From Candidatus Bathyarchaeia archaeon (lineage in GTDB: Archaea > Thermoproteota > Bathyarchaeia > TCS64): a stretch of 64,000 nucleotides of DNA. This document shows, piece by piece, positions 32,044-60,714 of this stretch (within the stretch, counting starts at the first letter, position 1; every line of letters begins with the position of its first letter). The position numbers were made by a program, and so were the translations under genes. Below the pieces are notes generated by a model that saw nothing but the letters and a program-made list of their open reading frames with translations, was not told where the DNA came from and searched no databases. The stretch is taken from contig JBEKDF010000003.1 in the NCBI GenBank assembly GCA_050014495.1, positions 1 through 64,000 of the forward strand. The letters run 5' to 3'.

Positions 32044-32982
32044 CTAGCTGACCATCTGTGGTTCCTCATCCGCTTTCTTATCTCTGAAGAAGAGGGAAAT
32101 TAATATGAAAAACCCGATGATTCCAAGCACTATACCCATATTCCAAAGTATTGGCACCTCAATTCCAAACAATGTAGCGAATGTTTTCACACCTAGGTAT
32201 GCGAGAACCAAGGCGAGACCTTTACTCAGGTACTTAAGTTCACTCATAGCGTGAGCAACTACAAAATAAAGGGCTCGTAACCCTAAGACCGCCATTATAT
32301 TGCTCGTATACGCTGTGAAGAACTCACCTGTAATCGTAAGTACTGCTGGTACCGAATCAAGGGCGAACAGAATGTCCGTCGTCTCTATGACGAGCAGGAC
32401 AATGATGAGAGGAGTGCATTTTAGAACCCCATCGATTTTAACCAAGAACTGGTCATCATGGTATTCTTCACATATTGGTAAGAATTTCTTTGCGAACTTG
32501 ACAACGAAGTTGTCACCAGGGTTCGTCGCCTCATTGCCTCCTCTGAGAAGCTTGTACGCTGAATAGAGAAGGACTACTCCGAAGACGTATATTATCCAAT
32601 TAAAGTTCTCGATGAGGTCGACGCCCACGAAGATGAAGGTAGCTCTTAATAAAATGGCCCCAAGTATCCCGAAGAATAGGGGCTTATGCTGCTTCGCAAA
32701 AGGGACACCAAAATAACTGAAGATCACTATAAAGACGAATAAGTTATCGACGCTGAGAGCGAGCTCTGTGACATAAGCGGTTACATACTTTATACCCTCC
32801 TCCTGCCCAAAGTTTAGGTAAATATATCCACCTAGTGAGACAGCGATACCAATTATTAGTATACTCCAGATAATATTACTATGAAGCGTTGGTTGTTTCT
32901 TCTTTGGCAGGAGGTCATATACAAGTAATAATATGATAATGAGATGAAATAGGACCCAGAACAGCAGGGGGACTTCAACCAA
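32044..32982 (-). CDS. TerC/Alx family metal homeostasis membrane protein
   Basis: LSVDNLFVF, ETTDILFALDSVPA, LGLRALYF. Confidence 0.92.
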   Translation of the reverse strand: MVEVPLLFWVLFHLIIILLLVYDLLPKKKQPTLHSNIIWSILIIGIAVSLGGYIYLNFGQEEGIKYVTAYVTELALSVDNLFVFIVIFSYFGVPFAKQHKPLFFGILGAILLRATFIFVGVDLIENFNWIIYVFGVVLLYSAYKLLRGGNEATNPGDNFVVKFAKKFLPICEEYHDDQFLVKIDGVLKCTPLIIVLLVIETTDILFALDSVPAVLTITGEFFTAYTSNIMAVLGLRALYFVVAHAMSELKYLSKGLALVLAYLGVKTFATLFGIEVPILWNMGIVLGIIGFFILISLFFRDKKADEEPQMVS

Positions 32983-35204: not shown

Positions 35205-35699
35205 CTAGGCGAGTTTAACGTTTCCCCTCTCGATGGCGGCTGCCCCAGTCCTACTCATCTCCTCTATCCCAATTGGAGCGATCCGCTTCAGGAACTCATT
35301 AATCTCATCGGTGGGTCCAGTGACCTCGGCTATTAATATCTCAGGCTCAACGTCGAGTATAAGACCGTGGTAAGCGTTCACCGTGTTAACAGCTTCGATT
35401 CGCGCAATTGGGTCTGAAGTCTTCAATTTAATCAGGAGAAGTTCCCTACTCAGCGTCCTGATGGGGTCGAGGCGCTTTACCTTGACAACATCGACCATCT
35501 TGTCGAGTTGCTCCACTATCTGGTTGAGGACACGACTTTCCGCGTCGACGACGACAGTCATTCTACTTAGAGGGCTCCCCTCGACTGGACCGACTGTTAG
35601 GCTAGTAATGTTGTATCCTCTACGCCTGAAGAGGTTGGAGACCTTGAAAAGGACGCCAGGCTTATTCTCGACAAGGAAGCTGACTGTATGCAGCGGCAT
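35205..35699 (-). CDS. ilvN: Acetolactate synthase small subunit (copy 1)
   Basis: VENKPGVL, RRGYNITSLTVG, RELLLIK, SRTG. Confidence 0.93.
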   Translation of the reverse strand: MPLHTVSFLVENKPGVLFKVSNLFRRRGYNITSLTVGPVEGSPLSRMTVVVDAESRVLNQIVEQLDKMVDVVKVKRLDPIRTLSRELLLIKLKTSDPIARIEAVNTVNAYHGLILDVEPEILIAEVTGPTDEINEFLKRIAPIGIEEMSRTGAAAIERGNVKLA

Positions 35700-35700
35700 A

Positions 35701-37386
35701 TCATGCGCCTCCTAGGAGGATATCTTTGAGTCCCATGCCCGGTGGGATCATAGGGTAGACATTCTCCTCGGGGTCTATCGGAACATCGATTACTGTTGTC
35801 TGCTTCTCTTTGACGCTTCGCCTGATGGCTACTTCTATCTCCTTTATAGAGTCCACCTTTACCCCCGTTGCCCCATAGGTCTCGGCGAGCTTCGCGAAAT
35901 CTGGGTGCATTGGTCTCTTTATAGTGCTATATCTACGGTTGTAGAATAGGCGCTGCCACTGGGCGACCATTCCTAAGACGCCGTTGTTTAGTATTACGAC
36001 TGTTATGGGAAATCCCTCATCGACGGCTAGTGCTAAGTTGTTCTCCGTCATAGCGAAACTGCCATCTCCCGAGATGTTGAGGACAGGGAGATCCGGCCTC
36101 GCAGCCTTAGCCCCGATGGCTGCTGGTGTGCCCCATCCCATCGTGCCTAGTCCCCCACTTGTGAAGAACTCACCTGGGCCTCGGACATCGTAGTGCTGCG
36201 CCGCCCACATTTGGTGCTGCCCCACATCGGTGACCACAATGCTATCTGGTGGCATCGCCCTTCTGATAGCCTTGATTACCTCTGGACCCGAGAGTGGTGA
36301 GTCGCTGTCCAAGATGTTTGTTTGTGCTCTGAGCTCCGCTATACGCTTCACAAGAACGACATCAGTTGGCATTGTAGATCTCTGCTGGGCGATCTTCTCC
36401 CTAATTCCCCTGATAGCTATCTTAGCGTCCCCAACTATGCGGGTGATGCTGTCAACGTTCTTGTCTATCTCACTCCGATCGACGTCGATGTGAATTATCC
36501 TCGCGTTTGGAGCGAAGCCACTGAGGGCACCTGTTGTGCGGTCGCTGAAGCGTGCCCCGACTACGAGGAGGACGTCGGCTTCTGGTACTATGTAGTTTGC
36601 CTCGATGCGTCCATGCATGCCACAGAGACCGAGGCATAGTGGATGGTTGCTTGGTATAGCCCCCTTACCCATTAAGCTGTGAGCTACAGGCGCTTGGAGC
36701 ATTTCAGCGAGTTCAACTAACTCCATCGTTGCTCCCGAAGCTATCGCTCCCCCGCCCGCAATAATGACGGGTCTACGCGCCTTCGAGAGTAGAGTCGCAG
36801 CCCAATATATCTCCTGAGGATTAGGGTCAGTACCAGGGTGGTAACCACGGAACTCGACCTTATCTGGGAAGATCATATCTGCCCTGTCAGTCTGAGTGTC
36901 CTTTGGGATGTCGACAAGTACTGCTCCCTTCCTCCCCGTAGAAGAGAGATAAAATGCTGACTTGATGGCGTGCGGTATCTCCGCAGCCTCCATGACCTGT
37001 ATATTATGCTTGGTGACGGAGGCGGTGATACCTATTATATCAACCTCCTGGAAGGCGTCTGTGCCAACCATGTTTAATGGGACCTGCCCAGTGAGTGCAA
37101 CGACGGACGAAGAGTCGAGTTGTGCAGTTGCGAGGCCTGTTACTATGTTCGTAGCTCCCGGGCCACTCGTAACCTGCACTACGCCGGGTCTTCCGGAGAC
37201 GCGCGCGTAGCCGTCCGCCATGTGAGTGGAGCCTTGCTCATGGACTCCGCCGACGTAGCGGATCTTCGAATTAAGCAGTTCGTCGCATATTGGCATGATC
37301 GCAGCGCCAGTAATACCGAAGAGATACTCGACGCCCTCCCTCTCAAGCGCCTTCACATAAGCCTCAGCGCCAGTCATTTCAGGCAT
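35701..37386 (-). CDS. ilvB: Acetolactate synthase large subunit (copy 1)
   Basis: HEQG, TSGPGATN, GTDAFQE, GQHQMW, SGGLGTMG, GDGSF; start set at MPEMT after AGGAG. Confidence 0.95.
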   Translation of the reverse strand: MPEMTGAEAYVKALEREGVEYLFGITGAAIMPICDELLNSKIRYVGGVHEQGSTHMADGYARVSGRPGVVQVTSGPGATNIVTGLATAQLDSSSVVALTGQVPLNMVGTDAFQEVDIIGITASVTKHNIQVMEAAEIPHAIKSAFYLSSTGRKGAVLVDIPKDTQTDRADMIFPDKVEFRGYHPGTDPNPQEIYWAATLLSKARRPVIIAGGGAIASGATMELVELAEMLQAPVAHSLMGKGAIPSNHPLCLGLCGMHGRIEANYIVPEADVLLVVGARFSDRTTGALSGFAPNARIIHIDVDRSEIDKNVDSITRIVGDAKIAIRGIREKIAQQRSTMPTDVVLVKRIAELRAQTNILDSDSPLSGPEVIKAIRRAMPPDSIVVTDVGQHQMWAAQHYDVRGPGEFFTSGGLGTMGWGTPAAIGAKAARPDLPVLNISGDGSFAMTENNLALAVDEGFPITVVILNNGVLGMVAQWQRLFYNRRYSTIKRPMHPDFAKLAETYGATGVKVDSIKEIEVAIRRSVKEKQTTVIDVPIDPEENVYPMIPPGMGLKDILLGGA

Positions 37387-37428
37387 AAATGGATACTCCT
37401 TGATACTTTTCTCGTTTCGATGATCCAT

Positions 37429-37540
37429 AAATCGTAGTCTCGGATGGATATCTAGTGGCTAAGAATACGATTCCCCATTCAACTATCCCCCATATTCGGG
37501 GGCTCAACAAAGCAATACCCCATGTTTCATCCTCCCAACA
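37429..37540 (-). promoter_or_regulatory. Conserved ilvB leader copy 1 (tandem uORFs, hairpin, CCGAGACTACGATTT)
   Basis: uORF 37523-37479 MGYCFVEPPNMGDS*, uORF 37478-37452 MGNRILSH*; same architecture as 57346-57507. Confidence 0.6.
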
Positions 37541-37590: not shown

Positions 37591-39246
37591 CTACTTCTGG
37601 GCTAAATTAATGACCGCGGAGACGAGCGCCTCCTCTGTGTCTGAGTGAATGATCCTTATGCGATAGAGCTCGGCGAGTCTTAGTTCCTCAGTCTTGATGG
37701 GCATGAGGGAGGCGATGAGGTATCTCGCAGAGGCGATGTCGGGGATAACATTGCTCTTCTCAATAATCTTGTTGTAGATCGGCTCATTTAAGACGACATC
37801 TATACAGAGGCGACTATCCTCGATGGTGGGGTCCATGGCAAGGATGTCAAAGTCATAATTCTTGGATGATTTCCCGATGACAATACCTGGGGCCTCAGCT
37901 TCCCAACCAGCCTCCTCAAATCCAACCTTGATCTTCTTTGATAGAAGCTCGGCCCTCCTCCGTTGGGCTGCGAGACGAAGTCTCTCCTGCAGAGGCTTGC
38001 CAAGTTCCCAGTAGTCCTTGAAAACAAGCATCATCGTCCCCACATATGCAGACATATTGGACCAGATGGTGCGATTCTGCGATACGGCGTATGGCACGTT
38101 GAGGAGGACCTCCTTTCCGTCAATTGCTACGAATACGAGGTCGGTAACGGCAGCGTTCTCCGAGACAACTATCGGGGTGTCTGCGATTCTACTCACCTCC
38201 GGTAAAGTTTCATTATCTGTTCGGGTTAATAGCCTCATTTTGATACCATTTCTCGCCATATCCTCAAGCATGGAGAGCGGTACAGGGAGCGTTGTCGCGT
38301 TCCTAGCGATAATGTCTATTGATTGACTGGCCTTAGCTATCATCTCACTGAAGATTGTCGCATACTCCTCTCGCGTAGTATAAGTCCTGATTTCAGGTGT
38401 AGCTTCCCCCGTCTTGATTGACTCTATAACGAGCTCTGCATCTGGGGCAAGGCTCCAAAGTGCATCATAGAATATCCCCAGGGCTTCCACATAGCTTGGC
38501 GCGTCTGTCCAAAGGCCTGTGTCGGAATTCGTAGTCATGCTCATGGAGTCGTCCATGGCGACTGTTGTGAGGGCTTCCCCCTTATCGATTATAGCGAATC
38601 TTATCGGATTCTGGAGGGTTATGTGACGGGTCTCAGTAAAGCTACTGTATGGCTCAACTTCCTTCCAGTTCTCTATATCAATTTGGGTGAGAATCCTGAT
38701 CTTCTTCCCTTGCCTGTTTAACGCTTTCAGTTTGTCATCAAGCCCCCATAGACTGAGGCGAGCGAGGTCACTTGTCGTTGTGACAAGCCTGACTGTCTCA
38801 TGGGTCCTGTCGTACATTTCAAGGAGAAGTTCGAGAACCTGCTGTCTACCCTGGAATATGCGGAACCTCGGCTCCTCTGGACGCTGCTCCGAACCACGGG
38901 CAAGGTTCTCCCACTCCCTTATGAAGGTGTCCTGATTTACCTCGAGATCGGTGAGCGTCTGGCGGAGACCCCCCAATTGACGGTCTATGACACTTCTCAG
39001 TGGGGCAGCGATGAACTTGACAGGCCTCCCCATGACTCGCTGGACGAACTCCTTCTCTTCTAACACCTTTAGGCTCCTGTAAGCCTTCATGCGGTTTAAG
39101 TTGAATCTCCTGGCGACAACTCGCGCGGGTGTTGGACCCGATGCTGAAAGGAAGACGTAAATTTCTGCCTCCTCCTTTTCGAGTCCAAAGCTCTTTAGCT
39201 TGCCTGCGAGCCTCTCGGTAGCCATGGTTTTGTTCTTTCCATCCAT
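37591..39246 (-). CDS. TrmB-family regulator with two effector domains and a C-terminal endonuclease-like domain
   Basis: FGLEKEEAEIYVFL...AYRSL..L.EK.FV...GRPVKFIAAP; two R.L / FAIID-type domains; GKSSKNYDFDI. Confidence 0.8.
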   Translation of the reverse strand: MDGKNKTMATERLAGKLKSFGLEKEEAEIYVFLSASGPTPARVVARRFNLNRMKAYRSLKVLEEKEFVQRVMGRPVKFIAAPLRSVIDRQLGGLRQTLTDLEVNQDTFIREWENLARGSEQRPEEPRFRIFQGRQQVLELLLEMYDRTHETVRLVTTTSDLARLSLWGLDDKLKALNRQGKKIRILTQIDIENWKEVEPYSSFTETRHITLQNPIRFAIIDKGEALTTVAMDDSMSMTTNSDTGLWTDAPSYVEALGIFYDALWSLAPDAELVIESIKTGEATPEIRTYTTREEYATIFSEMIAKASQSIDIIARNATTLPVPLSMLEDMARNGIKMRLLTRTDNETLPEVSRIADTPIVVSENAAVTDLVFVAIDGKEVLLNVPYAVSQNRTIWSNMSAYVGTMMLVFKDYWELGKPLQERLRLAAQRRRAELLSKKIKVGFEEAGWEAEAPGIVIGKSSKNYDFDILAMDPTIEDSRLCIDVVLNEPIYNKIIEKSNVIPDIASARYLIASLMPIKTEELRLAELYRIRIIHSDTEEALVSAVINLAQK

Positions 39247-52875: not shown

Positions 52876-54535
52876 CTAACCCAATTTCTTCTGTATTACC
52901 TCTTCCTTCCTGATTATTTGTGGGGCTTCCCTGAACATATTAGATGTAGGTGGGATGTCGGGTCTTGCATTGTGAAGCAACTGCTCAATAGTTAAAATCT
53001 GAATTTTAGGATATTCGTGATTCCAGTTAGGGGCAATATATGGGTCTGTGGCTTTAACTTCTTTAACCATCTCATCTGTTGGCTCTTCAAGGGTAATGAA
53101 TAGCCCCATTACAGCACCCTGTCTTTGAACAACATCCCTTAGTTCACGAATATCCTTCATTCCAACGTGTCCAGACTTTACCTGTACAACAATTCTCTCA
53201 ACTTGAGATTCAGAGATGGGGAATCTTAGCCAACCATCAATTCCCTCATCTGCCCCCTTTCTGCCAACTCTGGGTGAAGAACTTGTTGAGCCTACTGGTC
53301 TAGCACCAATCAAAGATAGTGCCCACCACTGGAATTGATACCTATCTTTAGAAAGTTCTCTTGCTGATTCAACATCCTTTGGTTCTCCTGTGACCTGAAA
53401 ATCTGCATTAGGAAAAGACTCTATAATTCGATTCTTGATCAGATTGATGGCTAAAAACGTAATATCAATGCCAATCCAATGTCGATGTAATGTTTCTGCG
53501 GTAATAGTGGCTGTACCACATCCACAGAATGGGTCTAAAACAATATCCCCTTCATTACTACTTGTTTTGATTATTCGTTCAAGTAACTCAACTGGTTTTT
53601 GAGTTTGAAAGCCCATTCGTTCAGAACTATGTGATTGTATTGGATTTATATCAGTCCAAATATCCTGAAGAAGAACACCTTTACCTTCATCTTTATACCG
53701 CTTATATCTTGGGACACCACCAATCTTCTTTGGAAAATAAATTCTTCCTTTTCTATCTAGTTCTTCTAAATTTTCTATAGTAAATTTCCAATGATTACCT
53801 CTAATATTGGGGTCGATTCCTTTCCAAACTTTTCCGCTTTCTCCTTTTCGTGTTCCTGATGCCATAAGGTCGGATGATGTCCATTCTCTTCCATCTGGGT
53901 CTTTATTTTTATAGAATTTATCAAGATAGTCTTTATCATAATCAGAATATTGTGGATTAAATGTATAATCATTTGACTTTGTGTAAAATAGGATAGAATC
54001 GTGTATTCTACCATATTTAGTAATTTTACCTTCTCCTGAATGTGCTGATGTTCTCTTCCATATTATTTCATTCCTAAAATTCTCTATTCCAAATATTGAA
54101 TCCATTATCAATTTGAGATAGTGACTAGCGGTTGAATCACAGTGAAGATAAATAGAGCCTGTTGATTTGAGAACTCTATGAAGTTCTAATAACCGAATAT
54201 CCATCATTACTAGATATGCTAACATATCATTGATTCCTAGAAAATGTTGTAGTGCAAGAATCAAGTTAGCGACATCGTTAGGGGTTTCAAGTGTGAGATA
54301 ATCAAAGGCTTTTCTTGCCTGTGTCCCAATGCCAAGTATCTGTGAAAGCCTGAATCTGTGCTTGTGATTGTTCTCCTGTTACTTCTTTGAAAAGAATATT
54401 ATAATCAGCTTGACTGTTGAAAGGTGGGTCTAGGTAAATCAGGTCAATTGACTCATCCTGAAAGTATTTGGGATTGCGAAGAACCGCAAGATTATCCCCA
54501 TAATATAGGGTGTTTTTAAAATCTGGATGAGCCAT
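52876..54535 (-). pseudogene. Amino-methyltransferase fused to an Mrr-like endonuclease domain, frameshifted near 54320
   Basis: YGDNL, YLDPPF in the 5' piece; TQKP, LDPFCGCGT, GIDG...VQVKSG in the 3' piece; the second frame runs open from about 54319 (ARKAFDYL...) into the large ORF; AT-rich. Confidence 0.85.
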
Positions 54536-55987: not shown

Positions 55988-57208
55988 CTACCTTAGAGAC
56001 CCATAGTCGAAGGGTCTCTTAGGGTCAGCAACGGGCGCCTTGACTGTGAATAGATCCGTGTACTTGAGGCCGGAGCCTGTGTTGAAGATGACGACGCGCT
56101 CGTTTCTTTCAACCTCCCCCTCTTCCACCATCTTCCTGAGAGCGGAGATGGTTGCAGCGCCTTCGGGGCACGCGAAGATTCCCTCTAGGCGACTTATCAG
56201 GCGGACGTCAGCCATAAGCTCATCATCAGTTACCGCGATGGCGGTTCCGCCACTTTCTCTCACCGCCTTAAGGATTAGGAAGTCGCCGAGGGCCTTCGGG
56301 ACTCTCAAACCGGACGCTAAAGTGTGTGCGTTTTCAAAAAACTCGCTCTCATCCTTTCCCTCCACAAAGGCCTTGATGATTGGGCTACAACCTTCTGCTT
56401 GGACGCTCACCATTCTGGGTCGCTCGCTCCCTATCCAACCCATCTCCTCGAGCTCGTCGAAGACCTTCCACATTCCAATGATTCCCGTGCCTCCGCCAGT
56501 GGGATAAATGATGACATCCGGCAGCTTCCAATCAAGCTGCTCCGCGACCTCGAGGCCCATCGTCTTCTTACCCTCAATCCGGTAGGGCTCTCCGAGAGTG
56601 GCTACGCTGAACCAAGCCATCTCCTGCTCACCGTCGCGGACGAGCTTCCCCGCATCGCTTATGAGACCCTTCACATAAACAACTTTAGCGCCAACAACGT
56701 CAGATTCTACAGCGTTGACCTTTGGAGCGTCCTCTGGCATGAAGACGTAAACCTCTAGACCCGCACGTGCCCCGTAGGCAGCCATCGCACCCGCAGCGTT
56801 ACCAGCTGATGGGAGTGCAACACGCTTAATTCCAAGCTCCTTCGCCCTGCTGATGGCGACGCTAAGGCCCCTCGCCTTGAAGCTACCGGTGGGGATGACT
56901 CCCTCGTCCTTGACAAGGAGGTTAGATAGACCCAGGGACTCACCTAAACGTGGTGCTGGGGTGAGTGGGGTCCACCCCTCCCCGAGGGTAACGATGTTCT
57001 GCTTTCTTTTCACCGGAAGAATCTCCATGTATCTCCACATCGAGGAGACTCTCCCAACGAGTTCCCGTTTCGTAATCGTCTCTTTCGCTGCCTCTAGGTC
57101 ATATCTAGCGAAGAGGGGTTTACCGCACTTTCTACAGACTGTCTGAACCTGATCGGCGTCGTGGAGTTCACCACACTTCGAGCACTCTAGGTGAGTTAGG
57201 TTACTCAT
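55988..57208 (-). CDS. thrC: Threonine synthase (family)
   Basis: TLGEGWTPL, PTGSFKARG, SAGNA, EGKKT, TGSGLK. Confidence 0.85.
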   Translation of the reverse strand: MSNLTHLECSKCGELHDADQVQTVCRKCGKPLFARYDLEAAKETITKRELVGRVSSMWRYMEILPVKRKQNIVTLGEGWTPLTPAPRLGESLGLSNLLVKDEGVIPTGSFKARGLSVAISRAKELGIKRVALPSAGNAAGAMAAYGARAGLEVYVFMPEDAPKVNAVESDVVGAKVVYVKGLISDAGKLVRDGEQEMAWFSVATLGEPYRIEGKKTMGLEVAEQLDWKLPDVIIYPTGGGTGIIGMWKVFDELEEMGWIGSERPRMVSVQAEGCSPIIKAFVEGKDESEFFENAHTLASGLRVPKALGDFLILKAVRESGGTAIAVTDDELMADVRLISRLEGIFACPEGAATISALRKMVEEGEVERNERVVIFNTGSGLKYTDLFTVKAPVADPKRPFDYGSLR

Positions 57209-57329
57209 GAATCCACTCCTATGGTTTACGGGTCTCGGCGGTGTTAAGTTTAGCGTGGTACAAACATCATACTGTAATTATCTTCACAAACTTTTTATTT
57301 AGTGCCGCTTATTTCTTGGCTACATACAG

Positions 57330-57514
57330 TTTGGAGATTGGTTTCATGGGGTATCGTTTTATCATTGCCGCCGAGTTGAGGGTGGCGTAGATGGGGTATC
57401 GCTTTATTCGGTAGTACAACACCCGTGGAGTGTCCCCAGTTCTTAATTTGGTTTAGTTCCTCAGTGATGGGCTTAGTCGCTTGGCTTGGTCCCCGATTCT
57501 ACGATTTGGAGGAG
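57330..57514 (+). promoter_or_regulatory. Conserved ilvB leader copy 2 (tandem uORFs, hairpin, CCGATTCTACGATTT next to the RBS)
   Basis: uORF 57346-57390 MGYRFIIAAELRVA*, uORF 57391-57414 MGYRFIR*. Confidence 0.6.
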
Positions 57515-57521
57515 TTCAAGT

Positions 57522-59213
57522 TTGGTTGAGATGGCTGGTACTAAGGCATTCGTAAAGTCCCTTGAGTTGGAGGGTGTGAAACACGTCTTCGGGCTACCTG
57601 GCGGAGTAGTCATCCCGTTATGCGATGAGATTCTTAACGGAGACTTCCGTTTCATCCTTGCCCGGCACGAACAGGGAGCAGCACATATGGCTGATGGATA
57701 TGCCAGAGCCACTGGGGGGGTGGGTGTTTGCCTCGCGACGTCCGGCCCAGGTGCCACTAACCTCGTCACCGGGGTAGCGTCTGCCAATATGGACTCAAGC
57801 GCAGTCGTCGCCTTCACGGGGCAAGTGACTCGTGCAACGATCGGCACCGATGCCTTCCAGGAGGTAGACATCATCGGGTGTAGCGCTTCTGTGACCAAGT
57901 ACAATATGCAGGTGAGGAAGGCCTCTGAGATACCGAGAGCGGTTAAGGTCGCTTTCCAGATCGCCTCGACGGGGAGGAGGGGTGCAGTCCTCGTAGATTT
58001 ACCTAAGGACGTCACGACCGACGTCGAGGACATCAGCTTCCCCGAGACCGTGAAGCTCAGGGGGTATCACCCCAACTATCAACCGGACCCACGCGAAGTT
58101 GAGTGGGCCGCGACGCTCCTCGCTAAGGCTCAGCGCCCCGTCGTTGTAGCCGGGGGCGGGGTCGTGAACTCCGGCGCGACACGCGAACTCGTTGCCCTTA
58201 GTGAGTACCTTATGGCGCCTACCGCAACTACCCTCATGGGCAAGGGCTCCTTCCCAGCCGACCACCCACTCAGCCTCGGCCTATGCGGGATGCATGGCAC
58301 ACAGGCAGCTAACAACCTCGTCCCCGAGGCGGACGTCCTCTTAATTGTCGGAGCGCGCCTCAGCGACAGGACGACGGGGGCAGTGAAGAGCTTCGCGCCC
58401 AACGCTAAGATTATCCACCTCGATATTGACAGGAGCGAGATCGACAAGAACGTGGAGACAGTGACTCGCGTCGTCGGGGACGCTGCCCTAGGCTTACGTG
58501 GCCTTCTCTACAACGTGAGCAAGCTCCGCGCGGGTGGTGAGGTGAGCTCCGAGTGGAGCAAGAAGGTGGCGGAATTCCGCTGCCAAGTCAACTCGAACGG
58601 TAATGGACATAAGGAGGGATATCTAAGAGCCCCCGACGTCATCAGAGCGCTCCGCAAATCACTCCCCCGTGAGTCGATCGTCACAACCGAGGTGGGGCAG
58701 TGCCAGATGTGGGCCGCGCTCCACTACGACGCCTACGACCCGAGGACCTTCTTCACTAGTGGTGGCCTCGGCACGATGGGTTGGGGTTTCCCAGCCGCCA
58801 TCGGCGTAAAGGCTGCGAGGCCCAAAGTCCCGGTCGTGGATATAGCTGGGGATGGCAGCTTTGGCATGACGGAGAACAGTATGGCGACGAGTGTCGAGGA
58901 GGACCTGCCTGTCGTAGTAGTTGTGTTGAATAATCAGATGCTAGGCATGGTCGCCCAGTGGCAGCGTCTCTTCTTTGACCACCGCTACTCTGCGGTGAAG
59001 TTGAAGGGTAACCCTAACATGGTGAAGCTTGCTGAGGCGTATGGGGCTGAGGGTGTCAGGGTAGACACCTTGGAGGCTTTCGAGTCCGCAGTGAGGCGAG
59101 CGATTAAGAGCGACGTTTCGACAGTCATCGATGTTCCGATAGACCCGGAGGAGAACGTATACCCGATAGTTCCACCTGGTGCGGGATTGAAGGACGCGCT
59201 TCTGGAGGCTTAG
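57522..59213 (+). CDS. ilvB: Acetolactate synthase large subunit (copy 2)
   Basis: FGLPGG, RHEQGA, TSGPGATN, GQCQMW, GDGSF; TTG start after GGAGGAG. Confidence 0.95.
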   Translation: MVEMAGTKAFVKSLELEGVKHVFGLPGGVVIPLCDEILNGDFRFILARHEQGAAHMADGYARATGGVGVCLATSGPGATNLVTGVASANMDSSAVVAFTGQVTRATIGTDAFQEVDIIGCSASVTKYNMQVRKASEIPRAVKVAFQIASTGRRGAVLVDLPKDVTTDVEDISFPETVKLRGYHPNYQPDPREVEWAATLLAKAQRPVVVAGGGVVNSGATRELVALSEYLMAPTATTLMGKGSFPADHPLSLGLCGMHGTQAANNLVPEADVLLIVGARLSDRTTGAVKSFAPNAKIIHLDIDRSEIDKNVETVTRVVGDAALGLRGLLYNVSKLRAGGEVSSEWSKKVAEFRCQVNSNGNGHKEGYLRAPDVIRALRKSLPRESIVTTEVGQCQMWAALHYDAYDPRTFFTSGGLGTMGWGFPAAIGVKAARPKVPVVDIAGDGSFGMTENSMATSVEEDLPVVVVVLNNQMLGMVAQWQRLFFDHRYSAVKLKGNPNMVKLAEAYGAEGVRVDTLEAFESAVRRAIKSDVSTVIDVPIDPEENVYPIVPPGAGLKDALLEA

Positions 59214-59215
59214 AA

Positions 59216-59725
59216 ATGAGCGAGATGCATGTAGTCGCGTTCTTGGTCGAGAATAGGCCGGGTGTGCTGTTTAATATAAGCAACATGTTCCGTCGGAAGA
59301 ACTTCAACATCCACAGCATCACTGCTGGGACAGTGCTCGACGACGAAACGGTGAGAATAACCATCGTCGTTCAAGCAGACTCCAGAGGCGTCAACCAGGT
59401 TGTGGAACAGCTCGATAAGATGGTTGACGTGGTGGAAGTAAAGCGCCTTGACCCGCTTCGTACAGTGAACAGAGAGCTGGCACTTGTGAAGCTAACGACG
59501 ACAGACCCGATGGCGAGAGAGGATGCCCTACGGTTAGTGAACGAATACCACGGTCTGATCCTGGATATCGAGCCGGACAACCTTATAGCCGAGGTCACGG
59601 GTGAGTCTGAGGAGATAGACGCGTTCATAGAGGCTGTTATGCCCATAGGGGTGGAGGAGATCTCGAGGACGGGAGTGACAGCTATCGAGAAGGGACGGCT
59701 AAGACTAGAGAAGGGTGAGTACTGA
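59216..59725 (+). CDS. ilvN: Acetolactate synthase small subunit (copy 2)
   Basis: VENRPGVL, FNIHSIT, RELALVK, SRTG. Confidence 0.93.
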   Translation: MSEMHVVAFLVENRPGVLFNISNMFRRKNFNIHSITAGTVLDDETVRITIVVQADSRGVNQVVEQLDKMVDVVEVKRLDPLRTVNRELALVKLTTTDPMAREDALRLVNEYHGLILDIEPDNLIAEVTGESEEIDAFIEAVMPIGVEEISRTGVTAIEKGRLRLEKGEY

Positions 59726-60714
59726 TGGTGAAGGTATACCACGATAAAGACATAGATGACAAGGTTCTGAAGGGGAAGACCGTGGCCGTAATCGGCTACG
59801 GTAGCCAGGGTAGGGCTCAGGCCCTCAACATGAAGGATAGCGGAGTTAATGTCGTAGTGGGTCTCCGCCCCGGAGGGAAGAGTTGGAAGCAGGCCCTAGC
59901 AGATGGCGTTAAGGTGACGACGGTCCTCGAGGCCGCACAGCAGGGGGATATAGTCCTCATGCTTGTCCCCGATATGGCGCAGCCCACAGTGTGGAAGGAA
60001 GAGGTCGCCCTAGCTATGAAGAAGGGGAAAACCCTCCAGTTCGCCCATGGATTCAACATACTGTACGGCGCTATCAAACCGCCTAAAGACGTCGACGTAA
60101 TAATGGTGGCCCCAAAGAGCCCCGGTGCAGAGCTCAGACGCCAATACGAGGCCGGCTTCGGCGTTCCATCACTTGTAAGCGTCCACCAGGATGCTTCTGG
60201 AAAGGCGTTACAGACAGCACTCGCCCTCGCGAAGTCGCTGGGCAGCGGAAAAGCAGGGGTCCTAGAGAGCACCTTCAAGGACGAAACTGAGGAGGACTTA
60301 TTTGGAGAGCAGGCTGTCCTCTGTGGTGGGGCTGACCAGCTGATCCGTAGGGGATTTAAGGTCCTCATTGATGCGGGTTATCCGCCAGAGCTAGCTTACT
60401 TCGAGGTCTGCAACGAGTTGAAGCTAATCGTTGACCTCATCTACAAGTCGGGGATAGGTGGGATGTACCGCGCTGTAAGCGACACAGCGAAGTGGGGTGG
60501 CCTCACTGTCGGCCCCGTTATCGTCGACGACCGCGTCGAGGAAAACATGAGGAAGGTGCTCAAGGACGTGCAGAGTGGTAAGTTTGCGAAGGACTGGATT
60601 GCCGAGTACAAAGATGGCTCGAAGCACTTTAAGGTCCTCATGGACGAAGTCGACGCACTGGAAATTGAGAAGGTCGGTAAGCAGATCAGGAAGATGAGTG
60701 GTCTCGAGAAGTAG
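59725..60714 (+). CDS. ilvC: Ketol-acid reductoisomerase
   Basis: GYGSQGRAQALN, FAHGFNI, DLFGEQAVLCGG, ELKLIVDL. Confidence 0.97.
   Translation: MVKVYHDKDIDDKVLKGKTVAVIGYGSQGRAQALNMKDSGVNVVVGLRPGGKSWKQALADGVKVTTVLEAAQQGDIVLMLVPDMAQPTVWKEEVALAMKKGKTLQFAHGFNILYGAIKPPKDVDVIMVAPKSPGAELRRQYEAGFGVPSLVSVHQDASGKALQTALALAKSLGSGKAGVLESTFKDETEEDLFGEQAVLCGGADQLIRRGFKVLIDAGYPPELAYFEVCNELKLIVDLIYKSGIGGMYRAVSDTAKWGGLTVGPVIVDDRVEENMRKVLKDVQSGKFAKDWIAEYKDGSKHFKVLMDEVDALEIEKVGKQIRKMSGLEK

Follow-up and report, generated by a model that had tools for sequence, protein, structure and literature searches.

The stretch of DNA analysed here, 64,000 nt long and referred to as the window, carries two ilvB paralogs, both encoding acetolactate synthase large subunits with proteins that are 60% identical. 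Copy 1 heads an ilvBNC gene order and copy 2 an ilvBN order. As originally predicted, both leaders share one layout consisting of a TTTTAT box, a GGAG, a 14-codon uORF, a hairpin and a second occurrence of the opening motif exactly 45 nt on (Table 1). The window contains four exact matches to this 15-mer motif, all within the two ilvB leaders, and allowing up to 2 mismatches yields 6 matches compared with 1.06 +/- 1.00 in shuffled sequences. The motif belongs to an 18-nt cassette made up of a start codon, RGG, two codons, NTT and a sensed codon (codon 6). The zero frame of the cassette ends within about 10 codons and the +1 frame is open. This +1 frame, read from codon 6, is the feature that the original prediction had missed.

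Table 1 Features of the two ilvB leaders and the genes behind them (window positions).
Feature	Position	Strand	Basis or remark
BRE/TATA-like putative promoter, CAAAC-TTTTTATT	57287..57299	+	sequence
SD of unit 1 (copy 1), GGAG	57333..57336	+	sequence
Unit 1 uORF (copy 1), 14 codons	57346..57390	+	sequence; kept in relatives
Unit 1 cassette (copy 1); predicted shift site TTT ATC (Phe, Ile) 57358-57363	57346..57363	+	
Hairpin GCCGCC/GGTGGC (copy 1), begins 3 nt past the sensed codon	57367..57386	+	computed fold
TGA in unit 1 +1 frame (copy 1)	57377..57379	+	found in copy 1 alone among 29 protein-picked loci
Unit 2 uORF (copy 1), 7 codons; predicted shift site TTT ATT (Phe, Ile) 57403-57408	57391..57414	+	
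+1 leader frame (copy 1), 40 codons, ends with TGA 57527-57529 within the ilvB start	57407..57529	+	
SD of ilvB copy 1, GGAGGAG	57508..57514	+	sequence
ilvB copy 1, acetolactate synthase large subunit	57522..59213	+	TIGR00118 above cut-off
ilvN and ilvC, downstream of ilvB copy 1	59216..60714	+	putatively same operon
Unit 1 uORF (copy 2); predicted shift site TTT GTT (Phe, Val) 37511-37506; hairpin 37502-37487	37479..37523	-	
Unit 2 uORF (copy 2); predicted shift site ATT CTT (Ile, Leu) 37466-37461	37452..37478	-	
+1 leader frame (copy 2), both units open to TGA 37381-37379 within the ilvB start	37379..37507	-	
ilvB copy 2 and ilvN copy 2	35205..37386	-	

Conservation in relatives places the start of ilvB copy 1 at TTG 57522 or ATG 57531. 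A third uORF proposed to overlap this start (57467-57529) does exist, but is the tail of the longer +1 leader frame, which has no Pfam match. The 3' arm of the copy 1 hairpin doubles as an SD-like element for unit 2. In this leader unit 2 is intact, and the TGA that closes the +1 frame of unit 1 is predicted to block the unit-1 route. All units are open in 28 of 29 protein-picked ilvB loci, the window's copy 1 being the sole exception. Losing one unit is plausible here because both units of copy 1 sense Ile; alternatively, the TGA is possibly a consensus error. The window's genome is listed at 7.5% contamination and its cimA-type gene, described below, carries an in-frame TGA as well. Between them, the paralogs would sense Ile (copy 1) as well as Val or Leu (copy 2), and so the full set of branched-chain amino acids.

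A threonine synthase gene (55988-57208, - strand) is divergent from ilvB copy 1, and a 551-aa protein with an N-terminal TrmB-type domain (37591-39246, - strand) is encoded directly upstream of copy 2. Elsewhere in the window, a low-GC stretch holds a DNA methylase fused to an Mrr-like/inactive restriction-endonuclease domain (52876-54264, - strand), and a TerC/Alx-family gene occupies 32044-32982 (- strand). The TerC/Alx family is riboswitch-linked in bacteria. No Rfam riboswitch was found in the window at gathering score, and the leader searched at E up to 10 returned only a snoRNA model (E 6.8, below its gathering score), so that the Rfam check gave nothing relevant. Between 57200 and 57560 a scan built on the bacterial consensus, which does not cover archaeal terminators, found no terminator-like site, and a promoter scan on the bacterial consensus also found none. 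Whole-cassette folds gave z values of -1.82 and 0.04, indicating no large conserved structure. A structure closing over the ilvB RBS, as had been suggested, was not borne out, the region around the ilvB SD folding no better than shuffles (z 0.23). The downstream motifs CTTAGYCRCT and CCGAnnCTACGATTT are indeed present in both window copies, but they are not conserved: among 92 leaders they recur exactly nowhere else, and a relaxed search recovered 9/92 with 1 mismatch and 6/92 with 2.

The cassette itself is retained widely. It was expected to persist in ilvB relatives, and did so at 29/29 protein-picked loci with upstream DNA (30 fetched, 1 without upstream DNA). Its tandem form was found in 91 stretches of public genomes. 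Names were listed for 80 of these: 76 belong to Bathyarchaeia, and four have bacterial labels (L040, L044, L094 and L105) although their ilvB leaders are of the Bathyarchaeia type, so that they are probably mis-binned contigs. The 45-nt spacing holds for 60 leaders, but 31 have 42 nt instead (36-54 allowed), and the stop of unit 1 lies directly, or 3 nt, before ATG2 in 90/91. Since 87/92 leaders have a TATA-like box 50-59 nt upstream of ATG1, we infer that the cassettes are transcribed. Three ilvB leaders (L013, L016, L017) keep the first uORF and its hairpin and have lost the cassette of that uORF.

Single units occur in 66 of the 151 genomes of the class (155 matches versus 5 in a reversed control), and among the 150 matches listed codon 6 is always Ile, Val or Leu, though Phe was allowed. 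Beyond the ilvB leaders, the window's own genome has two further units, at valS and at a cimA-type gene; no cognate cassette was found there at leuA-type, leuS, hisS or four ilvA-like genes. Outside the class, 5 of 20 matches read were real. In a second class of the phylum the cassette is present at 15/15 cimA-type 5' ends and 0/11 leuA-type ones, with some in-frame start in 10/15 of the former. Variant patterns added little: GGK+TTT with a non-T second base gave 38 matches against about 24 in the reversed control, with trpE the only cognate one among 30 loci read; AGG+TTT gave 64 matches, of which 30 were read and two were cognate, both Ile/cimA-type; and a pyrimidine-start pattern gave 176 matches, 150 of them listed, and the 50 loci read from this list yielded cognate cassettes for Trp, His and Leu only. 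Cassettes for Thr, Lys, Met, Arg, Pro, Phe or Tyr were not found with these patterns. Two Val-type matches (L143, L279) precede long +1 frames of 317 and 455 aa and may be chance; the 455-aa frame matched no NCBIfam family.

The reading-frame check that had been proposed for these leaders points to the +1 frame. In 90/90 leaders with a located gene (91 found), the +1 frame from both units stays open and stops -7 to +10 nt from the gene start, whereas frames 0 and +2 reach the gene start in 0/90. The last unit's +1 frame is open in 29/29 protein-picked ilvB loci. Using one representative from each of 34 leader clusters, the probability of an open +1 frame in shuffles was 0.09-0.51 per leader and the summed log10 -21.7, a value that is overstated since kin are not independent. 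The +1 leader frames comprise 20-60 codons, differ in sequence and in 86/91 cases have no SD-led start of their own. Their closing TGA is provided by the conserved ilvB start M-x-E-M, and their overlap with the gene is mostly 8 nt, compared with the usual 1 or 4. In one exceptional leader (L170) the +1 frame falls short by about 65 nt. Occlusion of the ilvB SD does not exceed that in control genes (unpaired probability 0.36 vs 0.35), so the frameshift model does not account for a low state of ilvB without coupling.

At other genes the +1 frame is the coding sequence itself. Among 30 single-unit loci taken from other families, this holds for 29, in which it encodes an enzyme of the IPMS/CimA family. 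The family model spans IPMS, CimA and HCS. Paralogs without the cassette share the HTFIATS motif of a solved IPMS, and the cassette-bearing paralog has HLVVPTS, which we take to mark CimA; on the strength of this motif and the difference from the solved IPMS we tentatively call it cimA-type. At cimA-type genes the Ile cassette lies one base out of the coding frame in 69/69 (50 pattern-picked, 19 protein-picked), and the zero frame stops within 10 codons. The 19 protein-picked orthologs, which fall outside the pattern, all bear a variant with TTT ATY. No in-frame ATG, GTG or TTG exists at all in 42/69, and none with an SD-like 4-mer in 55/69; some in-frame start is present in 27/69, which counts against the frameshift model. 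The leuA-type paralogs have the cassette in 0/21. A similar arrangement is found at trpE, for which 79 orthologs were identified in 201 genomes: 28 of the best 30 have the cassette with TGG and two lack it, the +1 frame is the coding frame in 28/30, and 16 of those 28 have no in-frame start.

Several individual cimA-type and leuA-type genes deserve mention. Two cimA-type genes (L202, L204) have an in-frame TTG with an SD and a decayed cassette, one with a TGA at codon 4, an apparent escape from the switch. A bacterial-type citramalate synthase (L371:3-1518, - strand; TIGR00977 above cut-off) is fused to an Ile cassette, and as it belongs to a different subfamily from the usual archaeal gene, this suggests that the cassette was recruited to an acquired gene. 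The window genome's own cimA-type gene (G000:C32:6008-7499, - strand) combines an Ile cassette with an in-frame TGA near codon 148. In-frame stops were also seen in a cimA-type ortholog (G081, one TGA) and in two leuA-type genes (G058 and G092, one TAA each).

Codon identity within the cassette was expected to be conserved. It varies among Val, Ile and Leu at ilvB, but it matches an amino acid of the pathway. The pairs at ilvB are Val/Ile (37), Val/Leu (36) and Ile/Ile (18), with ilvA-like genes contributing five of the loci counted. In one genome three consecutive units read Val, Leu and Ile, and at three loci belonging to another family Leu and a second site share one uORF. At valS the codon is Val in 13/13 fetched loci, one further locus being masked, as well as in the window genome's own copy, and the +1 frame runs into the opening codons of valS and stops there. 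In the window genome (G000:C44:5401, + strand) this Val cassette has a hairpin, and the +1 frame closes 11 nt past the gene start. The five ilvA-like leaders (threonine-dehydratase family; one gene checked, below cut-offs) are Ile/Ile, a leuS locus has Leu and a trpD locus has Trp. His codons stand at eight hisG and two hisS-like loci (L351-L360), which were chosen from His-codon matches; two other His-codon matches are not at his genes. Nine of these ten his leaders have another cassette 34 nt further along, within the +1 frame of the first, the next frame being open for 40-57 codons to the gene start, and one has a single cassette. Sensed Ile, Val and Leu codons all end in C or T, and the GAT, GAC, GAG and GAA anticodons are each represented by a single tRNA gene in the window genome. 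The proposal of a new regulator of branched-chain amino-acid synthesis thus gains support, but it was too narrow, as the cassette extends beyond ilvB to cimA-type, valS, leuS, ilvA-like, trp and his genes.

The codon preceding the sensed one follows a rule of its own. Before Ile or Val it is TTT and never TTC (68/69 cimA-type, the odd one being a script mis-pick, and 13/13 valS), while before Trp, His and Leu the first base can vary; at trpE (n=28) it is CTT in 13, GTT in 9, ATT in 5 and TTT in 1. Under this rule the shifted pairing has at most one mismatch, as +1 re-pairing of the P-site tRNA predicts, and the protein of neither frame explains it. Re-pairing from TTT to TTA or TTG requires a wobble mismatch for tRNA-Phe(GAA), which counts against the model. 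The 16S rRNA of the window genome ends in GGAUCACCUCCU, and the computed duplex of nt 1-12 with the genome's own 16S end has a median energy of -8.15 kcal/mol compared with -3.4 kcal/mol for 501 ORF starts. Most of this energy comes from nt 1-6 (-8.06 observed versus -7.24 with nt 7-12 replaced). In 48 of 80 distinct cassettes the predicted helix extends to nt 10, leaving 2 nt between it and the P codon. Cassette nt 11-12 show an R-Y bias that the frameshift model leaves unaccounted for. The hairpin of Val-type units is 89% paired, with 0/500 shuffles as high (29 sequences, the structure being derived from these same sequences), and covaries, with 3/6 pairs changed on both sides. In Val units the +1 codon TTG is preceded by an SD-like element, making de novo initiation possible there. 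The hairpin could act by stimulating the shift, by gating the unit 2 SD or by preventing initiation at this TTG.

Given these patterns, we consider it likely that the cassette is an amino-acid-sensing switch in which a programmed +1 frameshift takes place at a hungry codon and then leads either to fusion or to translational coupling. A ribosome would initiate at the uORF and, with NTT in the P site, nt 2-10 would pair with the 16S 3' end, forming a helix that, as in prfB, stops 2 nt short of the P codon. If the A-site tRNA arrives fast, the ribosome would remain in the zero frame and terminate; in tandem leaders it would then presumably restart at unit 2 and test a second amino acid. If the A-site tRNA is slow because charged tRNA is scarce, the P-site tRNA would re-pair in +1. 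At cimA-type genes and trpE the shifted ribosome would already be in the frame of the enzyme, and at ilvB, ilvA-like genes, valS and hisG it would follow the leader frame to the stop overlapping the start codon and restart there. Shortage of the sensed amino acid would therefore raise expression of the gene. Tandem units in frame with each other would form an OR gate (Val or Leu for copy 2; Ile for copy 1, where unit 1 is blocked), and the nested his leaders would need two shifts in series, a double-shift gate. The uORF idea of the original prediction survives in this model; its plain reinitiation switch does not.

Ribosomes might instead enter the +1 frame directly by initiating at the TTG, TTA, TTC or TTT formed by nt 14-16 via the internal SD, while the uORF modulates this by stalling or occlusion and no frameshift takes place. 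We rate this as highly improbable. The internal SD does lie at normal spacing from nt 14, the Val-unit codon TTG is an ordinary start, and hairpins sit right behind most Val codons, single valS units included, as if blocking such starts. However, TTA, TTC and TTT are to our knowledge not efficient starts, the second His cassette lacks a start and sits within a frame that can be entered only through the first, and the P-codon rule (TTT ahead of purines, no constraint ahead of pyrimidines) would be meaningless for initiation. Less probable again is a shift that senses nothing, occurring either at a fixed ratio giving a low constitutive level or right after the start, where it would make the +1 peptide W-G-I-[AV]-[FL]. 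The free motif positions 7, 10 and 13 are third codon positions of the +1 frame, a point in its favor, but codon 6 tracks five different end products, and in the +1 frame each gene has its own fixed codon (TTA, TTG, TTT). We therefore rejected both a shift at codon 2 and a conserved +1 peptide: ATG AGG variants place a TGA in the +1 frame at nt 2-4, and the peptide becomes WGGTL in the second class.

Classical stalling attenuation, a riboswitch or a site for an RNA- or DNA-binding regulator, to which we assign a yet smaller chance, would also suit the strong conservation at nucleotide level, the covarying hairpin and the promoter-like box ahead. None of these mechanisms can explain coding sequences without a start or the open +1 frames, and a DNA or protein-binding site would not need the conserved 42/45-nt spacing, the open +1 frame and a gene-specific codon 6. 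With no Rfam family, no terminator-like site in the bacterial-type scan and no conserved downstream motifs, the riboswitch, DNA operator pair and RNA-binding-protein site originally put forward are unsupported, and the conserved signal is a reading-frame pattern. Least probable of all is the loss of one base at the RNA level, by polymerase slippage or editing at the T run. It would likewise join the frames, but the run is only 2-5 T long, Trp and His units have C/G/A-TT, and the codon match and the two-step His design would need another explanation.

If the frameshift reading is right, CimA and TrpE of these archaea would be made only via frameshifting and their starts would be mis-annotated. 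A single codon would set the amino acid that is sensed, such that a codon swap changes it, and the dozens of natural test cases come with a predicted shift site and built-in logic. The cassette would show one way in which amino-acid synthesis is controlled across a large group of archaea, and could find use as a small biosensor for amino acids. On the basis of sequence comparison, it is likely that it represents a third general way, beside attenuators and T-boxes, of coupling amino-acid supply to gene expression: a portable 18-nt cassette used regulon-wide in at least two archaeal classes, with OR and double-shift gates. A literature search, mostly of the main text of papers open without subscription, found no description of frameshifting used as an amino-acid-sensing switch.

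In bacteria, leader-peptide attenuators (ilvL, trpL, hisL) and T-boxes make operons and synthetases respond to the charging of the cognate tRNA, and the cassette follows the same regulon logic. The original prediction that it is neither of the two agrees with our results. Unlike attenuators, it has one sensed codon per unit rather than runs, its output is a change of frame, no terminator-like site was found in the bacterial-type scan, and the downstream leader is not conserved; unlike T-boxes, its leader has no match to an Rfam covariance model. Sensor frameshifts are a known class, according to parts of a 2016 frameshifting review (PMC5009743), which also state that no hungry-codon frameshift product with a starvation-specific function was known. 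The hungry-codon frameshifting of Gallant and that of yeast Ty1 at CUU_AGG_C, as outlined in the same parts (PMC5009743), resemble the cassette in a +1 slip at a slow A-site codon under aminoacyl-tRNA limitation, but as described there they represent an error or a set ratio, whereas the cassette is conserved and predicted to control a pathway. In the ermC leader, a telithromycin-induced frameshift activates the downstream gene by unfolding an SD-hiding structure, and frameshifting at pheL is incidental to transcription attenuation, again as summarized in parts of that review (PMC5009743). Seen against these accounts, the likeness is that a uORF ribosome shifts frame and crosses the leader to the gene start, which for the cassette is a matter of architecture only; the trigger, however, is not a drug, and a stable SD-hiding structure was not seen at ilvB.

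Termination-reinitiation coupling in Haloferax volcanii needs overlaps or very short distances, according to parts of the report describing it (PMC10666635). By that account, the cassette's +1 frame, ending few bases from the start codon, falls within working range, but its upstream frame is a non-conserved leader of 20-60 codons entered only by the predicted shift, and in most cases the overlap measures 8 nt. For cellular genes of archaea, the parts of a 2021 archaeal recoding review that cover programmed frameshifting (PMC8211752) name a single case, fucA1, and give its regulatory purpose as unknown; as presented there, it is a -1 shift in a single gene. The closest likeness is to bacterial prfB (release factor 2), described in parts of the 2016 review as an autoregulatory +1 frameshift at CUU_UGA with an internal SD (PMC5009743). 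Both systems have a short zero-frame ORF leading to the shift site and an activating or product frame in +1, an internal SD-like element 2-3 nt before the P codon (for the cassette, in the predicted duplex), and imperfect P-site +1 re-pairing with a slow A-site codon as sensor, the latter again predicted for the cassette. By analogy, the cassette appears to work like the prfB shift yet is not a member of that system, having no stop in the A site and serving other genes. Where prfB has UGA in the A site after CUU_U, the cassette has an Ile, Val, Leu, Trp or His sense codon; it is archaeal, serves many unrelated biosynthetic and tRNA-synthetase genes for five amino acids, and would often act by coupling rather than fusion, with units arranged in tandem and nested.
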